Shown here: positions 61,866-64,000 of the stretch, piece after piece
Position numbering within the stretch: position 1 is the first letter of the stretch
How the letters are laid out: each line of letters starts with the position of its first letter
Source: Fidelibacterota bacterium
Lineage (GTDB): Bacteria > Fidelibacterota > Marinisomatia > Marinisomatales > UBA1611
Length of the DNA stretch: 64,000 nucleotides
Reading direction: 5' to 3'
Assembly (NCBI GenBank): GCA_002708715.1
Contig: PAPB01000024.1
Location: 33,320-97,319, forward strand
The notes under the pieces: generated by a model
The model's database searches: none
Told to the model about the DNA's origin: nothing
Seen by the model: the letters and a program-made list of their open reading frames with translations, nothing else
Program-made: the position numbers and the translations under genes

Positions 61866-64000
61866 TTAGGGTATAAAAACTTCTTTATTTGATTTTATTG
61901 AATCTATGATCATATCAGAAATTTCTGGTCTCATATACCATGTTGGAGGTTTATTGAGTTGAGACAGCATTTCTCGTGCTTCAGTACCACTTATAGCCAT
62001 AAAACTTTTTTTATTCTTTAAGTTAGTTTTAGAGGCTTGTTCAATATACTTCTGATCATTAGTTGAATAATGAACGTTGTTAAACTTAATGATTTCTATA
62101 TCTAGGTTGGGAATTTTGGAAAAAATATCATGAGCATTATTTTTATTATTACCTACCCCAGTATGATCACGGCCGATAATAAAGTGACTACATCCATAGT
62201 TCTTTCTACAAATTGCAGTAAAAATAGCTTCCCTTTCTTGAGCATACCTTGAATATGTTGATAAAACACCAAAAACAACTTTATTGTCAGGATAAAAGTC
62301 TCGCATTATCTCGTAACTTTTTATTATGATATTTGAGTTGTAATCGCCTGATTTTTTTTGTCCAATAACTGGGTGGATAAATAAACCATCACACTTACTC
62401 TTATCTAGGGCAGATAATTGTATATGCTCATGAGCTCTATGAATTACATTTCTTGTATGAAAGCCTACTACTTTTGACCAATTTTTTTCATCAAATAATC
62501 GTCTAGTTTGTCGAGGAGTTAAATTGTAATGGTTATGCTCCATATTTATTTTGTTAAATAAATGTATTTTTCCTCCAATAAATATTGGTTTAAATGTATT
62601 CACCTGTCTTACTCCAGGATGGGTGATATCATTTGTATGATACAATTTTTTTTGAATTAGTTTTTTATCAAATTTATATAAATCTTCAATCTTCATAATA
62701 CCGATCACACTATTAGAATTATCAGTTAATGCAACGGTTTCACCAATATTCATCTTATTAGTCTGATGCTCTTCAATATCAAGTAGAATTGGTATGGGCC
62801 AGATAATATCATTTGGCAAAATCATATTTTCTAATACAGTTTCAAGTTCTATTTTTGTCATAAAACCTTTTAATGGGCTATAGGCTCCAACTGCGATTTG
62901 GAATGCATCTAGTTTTTGATTTTCAGTAAGTTGAATTTTTTTTAGTGAACTTAATTCATTCTTTGTTAATGATGATGAATTATATCTATTAATTAATTCT
63001 CCACCATGTGGTTTGATCAAGGATGATGAAATAGTATCATCCAGCAAATAATCTTTGCTTTCTAAAAATGAAATAAATTCTTTTTCTTTGTTTATTGTTT
63101 TTTTTGTATCGATAATTGCAGTTGAATGTTTTATTATTTTATATAACATATTTATACATCCAATTGGATATTTCCCTATTGCTGTTTCAGCAGCTAGGGT
63201 TAAGCCATATGCTCCATCAACAATCGTATTAATTATGTCATGTACTTCTGCTCTGGTTGGTTTTCTATTTAATATCATTGATTCTAGGAGGTTGGTTGCT
63301 ACAAACACTTTTTTATTGTGCGACTTTGCTCTATCAATTATTATTTTTTGAGTGAATGGTATTTTTTCAATTGGAATCTCTTTACTAAGGTCGCCTCTAT
63401 CGATTAGTAAAAAGTCAGATTCTAGAATTATATCGTTTAGGTTATGAAGAGCATCTTTACATTCGATTTTTGAAATAATTTTCATTTTATTTTTCGAAAT
63501 ACGTCGTACATATTTTACTGAATTTTTATCTCGCATGAATGATGCTGCAACATGAGAAATGTTATTTTTTAAACCAAGTTTAATTGCTTCAATATCTTTT
63601 GCAGTTAATACTGGTAAGTTTATTTCTCTATTTATTTGAGGGTCGATTACAATACCTTTATTACTACCTAGAGAACCAGAGGAAATAATTTTAGCTTTTA
63701 TAAAGCCATGGGTTATAGTTTTTGTATCAGTTATTAATAGAGCAAGGGTGTCAAAGTCTACGTATAAAATATCACCAACTTTTAGCTGATCAATTATTTC
63801 CGAGGGTCTGATACTTATTTTCTGTTTATTACCTATAAATTCATTTTTATGTAACTCTACAGTTTGATTTTCAGAAAAACTTATAGATTTTGAATTTAAA
63901 TTTCCTGTTCTTACTTGAGAACCTTCGGTGTCAATTATAAATGGTATATTAGCTTTTTTGGATAAGTAGATAAAATAATTTAAATCTTCTATGCTTGAAT
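61866..64000 (-). CDS. fusion protein: pyruvate kinase catalytic (A/B) domains + PUA-like/ATP sulfurylase (sulfate adenylyltransferase), N-terminus outside window
   Basis: The minus-strand frame stays open from 63536 up to base 64000 and encodes the PK motifs [57 protein letters not shown] and [10 protein letters not shown]. It then encodes the Sat motifs [35 protein letters not shown] and [12 protein letters not shown]. Confidence 0.8.
   Translation of the reverse strand, partial: [710 protein letters not shown]

Follow-up and report, generated by a model that had tools for sequence, protein, structure and literature searches.

At the right-hand end of a 64,000-nt stretch of contig PAPB01000024.1, from the Fidelibacterota bacterium assembly GCA_002708715.1 (this whole stretch is called the window below, and positions refer to it), the minus strand carries a gene in which the barrel of a pyruvate kinase (PK) is followed, in one reading frame, by an ATP sulfurylase (ATPS; also sulfate adenylyltransferase, Sat). 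As an earlier note on this DNA had reported, the frame from 63998 to 61866 is open up to the window edge, with 710 sense codons and a stop, the remaining two minus-strand frames of 61866-63998 being interrupted by many stops, and all the motifs quoted in that note are found in the translation. The gene start given there, the ATG at 63536, arises only because the window ends where it does: the complete protein, P0001, has 745 aa and begins beyond base 64000, its first 35 residues (R30, N32 and S34 among them) being encoded past that base, and the window translation is 100% identical to it. The name given to P0001 by NCBI is 'sulfate adenylyltransferase [Candidatus Marinimicrobia bacterium]'.

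The identical 745-aa protein is called on 11 contigs that come from different samples and assemblers, and contigs L001-L003, again from different samples, carry the PK-Sat gene and match the window at 99.95-99.98% across 10-12 kb. No stop, frameshift or chimeric join, any of which the earlier note had named as a possible undoing of the fusion, was found between the two halves; since the protein recurs unchanged on the 11 contigs and L001-L003 match the window, a chimeric join or a missed frameshift is excluded.

Pfam profiles matched the window translation in the order that the note had proposed, namely the PK barrel PF00224 (aa 16-280, profile positions 59-326 of 328, E 9.5e-62), PUA_2 PF14306 (aa 328-482, E 1.6e-43) and ATP-sulfurylase PF01747 (aa 490-699, E 7.8e-66), and a full-length homolog covers PF00224 profile positions 2-328. 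The C-terminal allosteric domain of PKs, PF02887, has no Pfam match in the window protein, where Sat follows the barrel, just as had been noticed from the letters; the earlier estimate of the linker between them, roughly 40 residues at 63010-63125, was also about right (Table 1). An APS kinase domain, PF01583 (APS, adenosine 5'-phosphosulfate), is absent from the window protein in both Pfam and NCBIfam searches.

An AlphaFold2 model built with 109 sequences reached a whole-chain predicted local distance difference test score (pLDDT) of 89.1 and a predicted template modelling score (pTM) of 0.88, values which imply that, in the model, PK and Sat adopt a defined arrangement. The N-terminal half aligns with the solved PKs 2e28, PykF and 3t05 across residues 3-343, and Foldseek superposes it on the A and B domains of PykF over 343 columns at ~3 Å. 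The Sat half is placed on ATPS structures with template modelling (TM) scores of 0.90-0.93, the alignment to 8a8d spanning residues 8-378 of that half. No PDB chain covered both halves, either in the PDB search or in Foldseek.

Table 1. Features of the PK-Sat fusion gene (window positions)
Feature	Position	Strand	Basis or remark
PK-Sat fusion gene	61866..64000	-	3' 2,135 nt of 2,238-nt gene; residues 36-745 of P0001
PK A-domain TIM barrel + inserted B (lid) domain	63114..64000	-	PF00224; truncated at window edge
DTEGSQVR loop (canonical DTKGPEIR)	63909..63932	-	D58, T59, R65 kept; PKM2 K115, E118 positions = E60, Q63
PK B (lid) domain, ~residues 68-165 of P0001	63609..63902	-	strand-rich insert in model
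Lid Lys149 (PKM2 K207)	63657-63659	-	invariant in 109 sequences
PK catalytic core, incl. IDRGDLS strand	63390..63470	-	K212 63468-63470, E214 63462-63464, D238 63390-63392
ATNLLESM (T270), PTRAE, LAAETA (A304 at S362 position; E306)	63186..63296	-	homolog alignment, PKM2 map
Inter-module linker, P0001 residues 331-364 (~35 residues)	63012..63113	-	mostly one helix (333-349), model secondary structure
ATP sulfurylase domain I (PUA-like), from PHGGELINR	62553..63017	-	PF14306; alignment to 8a8d
ATP sulfurylase catalytic domain II + domain III	61902..62531	-	PF01747, TIGR00339, 8a8d 281 bits
RNP loop + HxxH motif, His549 for canonical Gln	62430..62459	-	homolog alignment
GRDHTG (GRD loop), Thr648 for canonical Ala	62157..62174	-	homolog alignment
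Stop codon of PK-Sat fusion gene	61866-61868	-	open-frame translation

Residues of the two active sites

Residues of the PK half were mapped onto human PKM2 numbering, the map being self-consistent at every catalytic landmark; invariance was judged in an alignment of 109 homologs, down to ~52% identity, and motif counts were taken from 120 homologs. R30, N32 and S34 (PKM2 R73, N75 and S77), D58 (D113), R65 (R120), the lid residue K149 (K207), the catalytic K212, E214 and D238 (K270, E272 and D296), T270 (T328) and E306 (E364) are all invariant, and T59 (T114) is kept in 108 of the 109 sequences. The earlier note had allowed that the PK Lys/Glu/Asp or the Sat HxxH residues might prove lost on alignment; both sets are retained in every homolog.

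Canonical pyruvate kinases (EC 2.7.1.40; PykF, PykA, PKM) share with the fusion the A barrel, the B lid and the residues for phosphoryl transfer, Mg2+ and phosphoenolpyruvate (PEP); they differ from it in having the C-domain, in passing the equivalog cut-offs and in sitting in glycolysis, whereas the fused PK is placed in a sulfation pathway. They also differ at five active-site positions, PKM2 K115, E118, A293, Q329 and S362 being E, Q, D, N and A in the fusion. The loop DTEGSQ[VI]R, which holds the first two of these changes, occurs in 117 of 120 homologs, and its Q63, at the position of PKM2 E118 (which we take to be the canonical K+-site Glu), is invariant. The change at A293 turns VARGDLG into IDRGDLS within a strand whose RGDL is found in 120/120, the PKM2 Q329 position is Asn across the fusion family, and LAAETA is present in 101/120, with Ala at the S362 position (A304) in 101/109 and Ser in eight.

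Mean pairwise identity among the 109 homologs is 65.5% in the PK half, 61% in the Sat catalytic domain with domain III, 49% in the PUA domain and 47% in the linker, making the PK half the most conserved segment of the protein and the linker the least; divergence of the PK half and of the Sat half is correlated (r = 0.80). This conservation, together with the invariant catalytic residues, argues for strong selection on the PK half as an enzyme, and the N-terminal module is apparently a catalytically competent pyruvate kinase devoid of the allosteric, tetramerising C-domain.

The Sat half passes the equivalog-domain model for sulfate adenylyltransferase, TIGR00339, with 342.6 bits against a cut-off of 322.95, and falls just under that of PRK04149 (386.2 vs 387). 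Its closest relative in the PDB is the ATPS of Methanothermococcus thermolithotrophicus, 8a8d (281 bits), followed by that of Thermus thermophilus, 1v47 (224 bits); the former has been biochemically verified and works with a separate APS kinase (PMC10322725). These stand-alone enzymes have the same three-domain layout as the fusion (TM 0.90 and 0.93 for 8a8d and 1v47), but no N-terminal PK, and they carry QTRN and GRDHAG where the fusion has HTRN and GRDHTG. H549, T550, R551, N552, H555 and H558 are invariant in the 109 homologs, and the GRD-loop residues G644, R645, D646 and H647 are conserved, as are G581, K584 and D587 of the mobile loop GxxKxxD. The motif that had been read as of the QxRNPxHxxH type thus keeps its RN and HxxH, whereas its Gln is His in all homologs; in the GRD loop Ala is replaced by Thr in 105/109 of the alignment, GRDHTG being present in 114/120 homologs.

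In characterised ATPS, whose loops are strictly conserved, the sulfate oxygens of APS are hydrogen-bonded to the RNP-loop Gln, to Arg and to the backbone NH of the GRD-loop Ala (PMC3779200). The fusion variants that bear Sat share HTRN and GRDHTG, and the canonical APSK-Sat protein P0238 (APSK, APS kinase) has QTRN and GRDHAG. The His/Thr pair was also seen in the stand-alone Sats P0185 and P0207. From its residues, we would expect the Sat half to be a working ATP sulfurylase of the homo-oligomeric type, and its product is still taken to be APS, given the APS kinase that comes after it at most loci.

Distribution, domain orders and gene neighbourhoods

A collection of 5.8 billion proteins was searched with clusters at 90% identity; the best 120 matches, which were examined, are all PK + PUA_2 + ATP-sulfurylase proteins of ~745-760 aa, down to 51% identity, and the architecture occurs in more than 120 such clusters. 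In an exhaustive search of 50% identity representatives, ~70 of the best 150 clusters (a manual count from the match table) span both halves, down to 32% identity. Among genomes taken one per GTDB species there are at least 575 confirmed relatives, the best 80 of which are full- or near-full-length loci, nearly all covering residues ~3-744. The hosts among these 80 include DPANN archaea (Nanoarchaeia, Woese- and Pacearchaeota), bacteria of the Candidate Phyla Radiation (CPR/Patescibacteria), Chloroflexota, Acidobacteriota, Gemmatimonadota, NC10, Omnitrophota, Bdellovibrionota, Planctomycetia and Gammaproteobacteria, and the cultured Flavobacterium sp. Leaf82 and [Flexibacter] sp. ATCC 35103, both with RefSeq genomes. 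The same domain order, for which the earlier note had suggested looking in related genomes, is therefore present in bacteria and archaea, and the ~70 clusters and 80 species loci do away with the picture of a lone oddity: PK-Sat is a large, widely transferred family.

Other domain orders exist beside it. P0150 (859 aa; PK + PK_C + Sat) is a rare relative that keeps the C-domain, P0133 is a PK-Sat-APSK protein, P0170 (1,151 aa) has an N-terminal nucleotide pyrophosphatase/phosphodiesterase (Phosphodiest/NPP) ahead of PK and Sat, and P0058 (1,019 aa) has an NTP_transferase domain there; separately, in 6 loci an NTP_transf_3 gene immediately precedes the fusion. P0180 (725 aa) has the reverse order, PUA_2-ATP-sulfurylase-PK, and is known from one contig only (L092:1916-4093), where it lies among genes for PMT_2 and GT2 glycosyltransferases, for a PBP_like_2/BPD_transp_1/ABC_tran transporter and for a member of the PAPS_reduct family. 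P0195 (533 aa) joins a short PK barrel straight to an APS kinase, without Sat, on two independent contigs (L093:3070-4671 and L094:1805-3406), by sulfotransferase, methyltransferase and glycosyltransferase genes.

All domain-order variants have the IDRGDL subtype of PK in common. A short barrel of this kind also stands alone as P0269 (358 aa, no C-domain; DTEGAQIR, IDRGDL and LAAETA; L091:832-1908) and is joined to a CBS domain in P0256 (478 aa). Stand-alone short barrels had been considered as partners of a split Sat, a candidate that we rejected, P0269 being flanked by dapB and a folC-like gene. The short subtype appears, from these sequences, to be a pre-existing lineage of C-domain-less PKs that is present outside the sulfur context.

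For the neighbourhood survey, open reading frames (ORFs) were called in all loci and clustered, the representatives were annotated with Pfam and the clusters re-searched with hidden Markov models, which left 85 non-redundant loci. An APS kinase is found at 58 of the 85, fused in 18, adjacent (≤300 bp, same strand) in 30, within 3 kb in nine and farther away in one; a sulfotransferase of any of three clusters at 46; a CysQ-like Inositol_P gene at 16; and at least one of the three at 71. Further recurrent neighbours are epimerases of the GDP-mannose-dehydratase type, DegT aminotransferase, CTP_transf_3, NeuB, UDP-GlcNAc 2-epimerase, CMP-sugar cytidylyltransferase, GT2 and GT4 glycosyltransferases, a flippase and a PQ-loop protein, and most PK-Sat loci sit in glycan clusters. 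None of aprAB, dsr, sox, sulfite reductase or CysH is among the recurrent neighbours of the 85 loci. The role in sulfur metabolism that the earlier note had looked for stands in this form: the neighbours point to 3'-phosphoadenosine 5'-phosphosulfate (PAPS) for sulfotransferases in glycan and natural-product clusters, not to assimilation or dissimilation.

Three loci of the group at 62-63% identity illustrate the arrangement. In L088, Sulfotransfer_1 is followed by PK-Sat and then by APS kinase, whose start codon overlaps the PK-Sat stop codon, and glycosyltransferases come next; in L089, the order is sulfotransferase, TauE, PK-Sat, APS kinase and flippase, with NeuB and CMP-sugar genes nearby; and in L090, APS kinase and PK-Sat are followed further on by NeuB. 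Another locus, L006, encodes directly downstream of PK-Sat a 446-aa protein in which an APS kinase is joined to a CysQ-like Inositol_P (3'-phosphoadenosine 5'-phosphate phosphatase) domain (10260-11600), and also a 949-aa protein that combines CTP_transf_like, PPDK_N and PEP-utilizers domains. Pfam gave no matches for neighbours of 304 aa in L004, 254 aa in L007 and 347 aa in L090.

At the window locus itself, a TauE/SafE (TSUP) permease gene on the same strand precedes the fusion by 119 bp, beyond base 64000 (L001:9162-9881), and is itself preceded on that strand by a cellulase of glycoside hydrolase family 5, with sugar-nucleotide genes further up. The permease may import sulfate for the pathway. 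It is the only sulfur-related neighbour: no APS kinase, CysQ or sulfotransferase was found by tblastn in the window plus a 10-kb flank (74 kb in total).

In Flavobacterium sp. Leaf82 and ATCC 35103 (L067:35-10778 and L068:36-10778), a 2,367-aa nonribosomal peptide synthetase (NRPS), a ~300-aa sulfotransferase-like protein and a 925-aa PK-Sat-APSK protein are encoded in a row. The Flavobacterium triple fusion has the accession WP_056247316.1. The sulfotransferase-like protein belongs to cluster ST_c, which is Gal-3-O-sulfotransferase-like, and the N-sulfonated monobactam SQ 28,332 is made by ATCC 35103, whose cluster is catalogued as MIBiG BGC0001672 / KY502195. The sulfazecin cluster likewise sets a PAPS-supplying enzyme beside a sulfotransferase in an NRPS context, with an APS kinase domain embedded in the NRPS SulI and the sulfotransferase SulN (PMC11298585); it differs in that SulI holds the APS kinase domain only, whereas Leaf82 and ATCC 35103 have a complete PK-Sat-APSK as a separate gene, and the window gene, unlike both, is not in an NRPS cluster. 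By analogy with the SulI domain, the triple fusion is probably the source of PAPS for N-sulfonation of the monobactam. The monobactam biosynthetic gene cluster has been published as unique to ATCC 35103, yet Leaf82 holds the same three genes.

A proposed role for the fused kinase in sulfate activation

Sulfate activation is among the most unfavourable steps of core metabolism, and each of the known mechanisms that pull it is a textbook case. We consider, with a probability of roughly 0.85-0.9, that PK and Sat are truly fused and that the protein takes part in activating sulfate for PAPS-dependent sulfation. The full mechanism that we propose, in which the fused PK supports PAPS supply by recycling the ADP of APS kinase to ATP at the expense of PEP, is in our view reasonably probable.

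According to this proposal, the Sat half would convert ATP and sulfate into APS and pyrophosphate (PPi), and a partner APS kinase, which would be encoded elsewhere in the window genome and is adjacent or fused in most relatives, would convert APS into PAPS with release of ADP. The PK module, anchored to the sulfurylase in place of its own C-domain, would then regenerate ATP from this ADP and PEP. APS kinase is named as the source of the ADP because Sat itself makes none; the PK-APSK fusion P0195, which lacks Sat, links PK to the ADP-producing step, and APS kinase is fused or adjacent in 48 of the 85 loci. The suggestion in the earlier note that PEP-derived ATP feeds sulfate activation thus remains the best reading, with the amendment that APS kinase, and not Sat, would supply the ADP.

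Three benefits may follow from such an arrangement: removal of ADP would free APS kinase from a dead-end enzyme-ADP-APS complex, MgATP would be kept high at the sulfurylase, and the free-energy drop of PEP cleavage would be added to a very unfavourable activation, the net reaction being sulfate + ATP + PEP -> PAPS + PPi + pyruvate. An engineered PAPS cascade made practically no PAPS unless ATP was regenerated with PK and PEP, owing to the dead-end APS kinase-ADP-APS complex (PMC9885120); it resembles the proposed mechanism in that PK and PEP remove ADP, and differs from it in that the natural fusion is covalent. The output would be sulfated cell-surface glycans, and natural products in some relatives, and in the window organism the upstream TauE/TSUP anion permease would probably supply the sulfate. 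A more specific and tentative version, to which we give somewhat less than even odds, is a natural self-recharging PAPS synthase, in which a partner APS kinase would hand its ADP to the fused PK for rephosphorylation with PEP and immediate local reuse; activation would then be driven by PEP and not by the bulk ATP pool, and the His/Thr sulfate contacts would be a co-adapted change of anion binding.

Several points weigh against this interpretation. A cell-wide pool of ATP and ADP exists, and a fused PK would be useful only with local channelling or in a complex with APS kinase; both enzyme activities of the family members are, moreover, read from sequence. All PK equivalog models of NCBIfam score under their cut-offs, owing to the lack of a C-terminal domain (on the window-truncated sequence, TIGR01064 at 252.3 vs 306.4 and PRK05826 at 249 vs 432). 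With its five substitutions relative to PKM2 the PK site is not fully canonical, and its use of substrate or cation may differ, while in the Sat half two of three sulfate-contacting residues have been exchanged throughout the family (Gln -> His and Ala -> Thr, the latter contact running via the backbone NH). An APS kinase is not within reach at 27 of the 85 loci, the window organism included. Finally, the C-domain-less PK subtype is not exclusive to sulfate activation, occurring alone or with CBS domains, since P0269 and P0256 lie in unrelated contexts.

Some of these points would equally suit a PK barrel with a new function, either as a PEP-dependent phosphotransferase acting on another acceptor (another nucleotide, or, where no APS kinase is encoded nearby, APS) or as the catalyst of another reaction of PEP that is linked to the modified sulfate site of the Sat half. 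The family-specific changes in DTEGSQxR, IDRGDLS, ATNLL and LAAETA, the concerted replacement of Gln by His and Ala by Thr in Sat, and the 27 loci, among them the window, that have no nearby APS kinase speak for it. We nevertheless judge it unlikely: all residues known to bind nucleotide phosphates, Mg2+ and PEP are invariant, the lid Lys included, members of the family have either Ala or Ser at the S362 position, so that this change is not essential, and the PK-Sat-APSK and PK-APSK fusions make PK and APS kinase complementary rather than alternatives.

The invariance of the catalytic residues, mobile lid Lys149 included, down to ~52% identity also renders improbable a non-catalytic barrel that would regulate the sulfurylase through binding of PEP or adenine nucleotides or provide an oligomerisation interface, for these residues are as a rule lost in degenerate regulatory domains, and no segment of the protein is more conserved than the PK half. 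Loss of the C-domain, the usual seat of PK tetramerisation and regulation, would fit that explanation, as would the high pTM, which suggests tight packing in the model, and there is a precedent in the ATPS of P. chrysogenum, of which 1i2d and 1m8p are structures and in which a degenerate, APS-kinase-like domain is an allosteric module.

A role in this Marinimicrobia genome in assimilatory sulfate reduction, from APS or PAPS by way of sulfite to sulfide, with the same energetic part played by PK, would be compatible with the mechanism. In its favour, TauE is the sole sulfur-related neighbour of the window gene, no APS kinase or sulfotransferase lying within the 74 kb, and the reverse-order P0180 has an ABC transporter and a PAPS_reduct-family gene close by. 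However, in the nearest relatives whose context is informative, at 62-63% identity, the sulfotransferase and APS kinase genes belong to glycan clusters, and the order TauE-PK-Sat recurs in one of these relatives; sugar-nucleotide genes flank the window locus, and CysH and sulfite reductase are not among the recurrent neighbours of the surveyed loci, which leaves this role quite improbable.

The earlier note had offered as its alternative that the fusion is coupled to the reverse reaction, and homo-oligomeric Sats do run backwards in sulfur oxidisers, making ATP from APS and PPi (PMC3779200). Gene context lends this dissimilatory role no support, and we rejected it on the neighbourhood evidence as very unlikely: aprAB, dsr and sox are missing from the recurrent neighbours of the 85 loci, where APS kinase, CysQ and sulfotransferases are found instead. 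The family is, besides, common in CPR and DPANN, which to our knowledge are devoid of respiratory sulfur metabolism. The chance that an assembly chimera or a missed frameshift joined two genes is negligible, being ruled out by the identical protein on 11 contigs and by the same junction in hundreds of orthologs from unrelated phyla, the RefSeq genomes of cultured isolates included.

PAPS synthases (Aquifex aeolicus 2gks, human PAPSS1/2, NF004040) are a close known parallel to a fusion that would supply PAPS: they likewise join a Sat of the homo-oligomeric type to an auxiliary pulling enzyme, their output, PAPS, is the one proposed here, and about a fifth of the PK-Sat relatives likewise have an APS kinase in the same chain. 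The window protein differs in lacking an APS kinase domain (NF004040, 276 bits vs a cut-off of 669), and its partner would be a PK barrel acting on the by-product ADP, not on APS. Other energetic couplings of sulfate activation are the GTPase-coupled CysDN, in which CysN hydrolyses GTP, and Sat-pyrophosphatase fusions, which remove PPi; the logic of an extra exergonic or product-removing step is the same, PK-Sat being dependent on PEP instead. As the earlier note had supposed, no characterised enzyme of this architecture came to light: a literature search found no published description of a natural PK-ATP sulfurylase fusion, and neither a curated NCBIfam model specific for it nor a PDB entry was found. 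Databases name the family members 'sulfate adenylyltransferase', 'pyruvate kinase' or 'hypothetical protein'; PK-Sat is certainly visible as an automatic domain architecture, that is, as a catalogued sequence family whose function is undescribed.

If the self-recharging version is true, sulfate activation would have a fourth, previously unrecognised way round its thermodynamic problem beside APS kinase fusion, the CysN GTPase and pyrophosphatase, one that hundreds of lineages employ, CPR and DPANN included. The fused PK would bring substrate-level, PEP-driven nucleotide recycling to sulfate activation and would be one of few natural cases of an ATP-regenerating module built into a biosynthetic enzyme. 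The family, abundant in CPR and DPANN with their minimal metabolism and in ocean Marinimicrobia, would mark a capacity for sulfated surface glycans and so bear on how sulfation potential is read from metagenomes, and annotation of its members as 'pyruvate kinase' could inflate glycolysis calls. The fusion would also be of direct practical use in the industrial synthesis of PAPS and sulfated glycans, which already supplies PK and PEP by hand, and the triple fusion in the cultured Flavobacterium sp. Leaf82 and the monobactam producer ATCC 35103 makes the idea testable.

At its 3' end, the fusion gene is met by a convergent 106-aa ORF (window 61521-61841, plus strand) across a gap of 24 bp, in which a terminator scan found no terminator-like hairpin. 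This ORF is without a Pfam match and is also called as a gene on related contigs.

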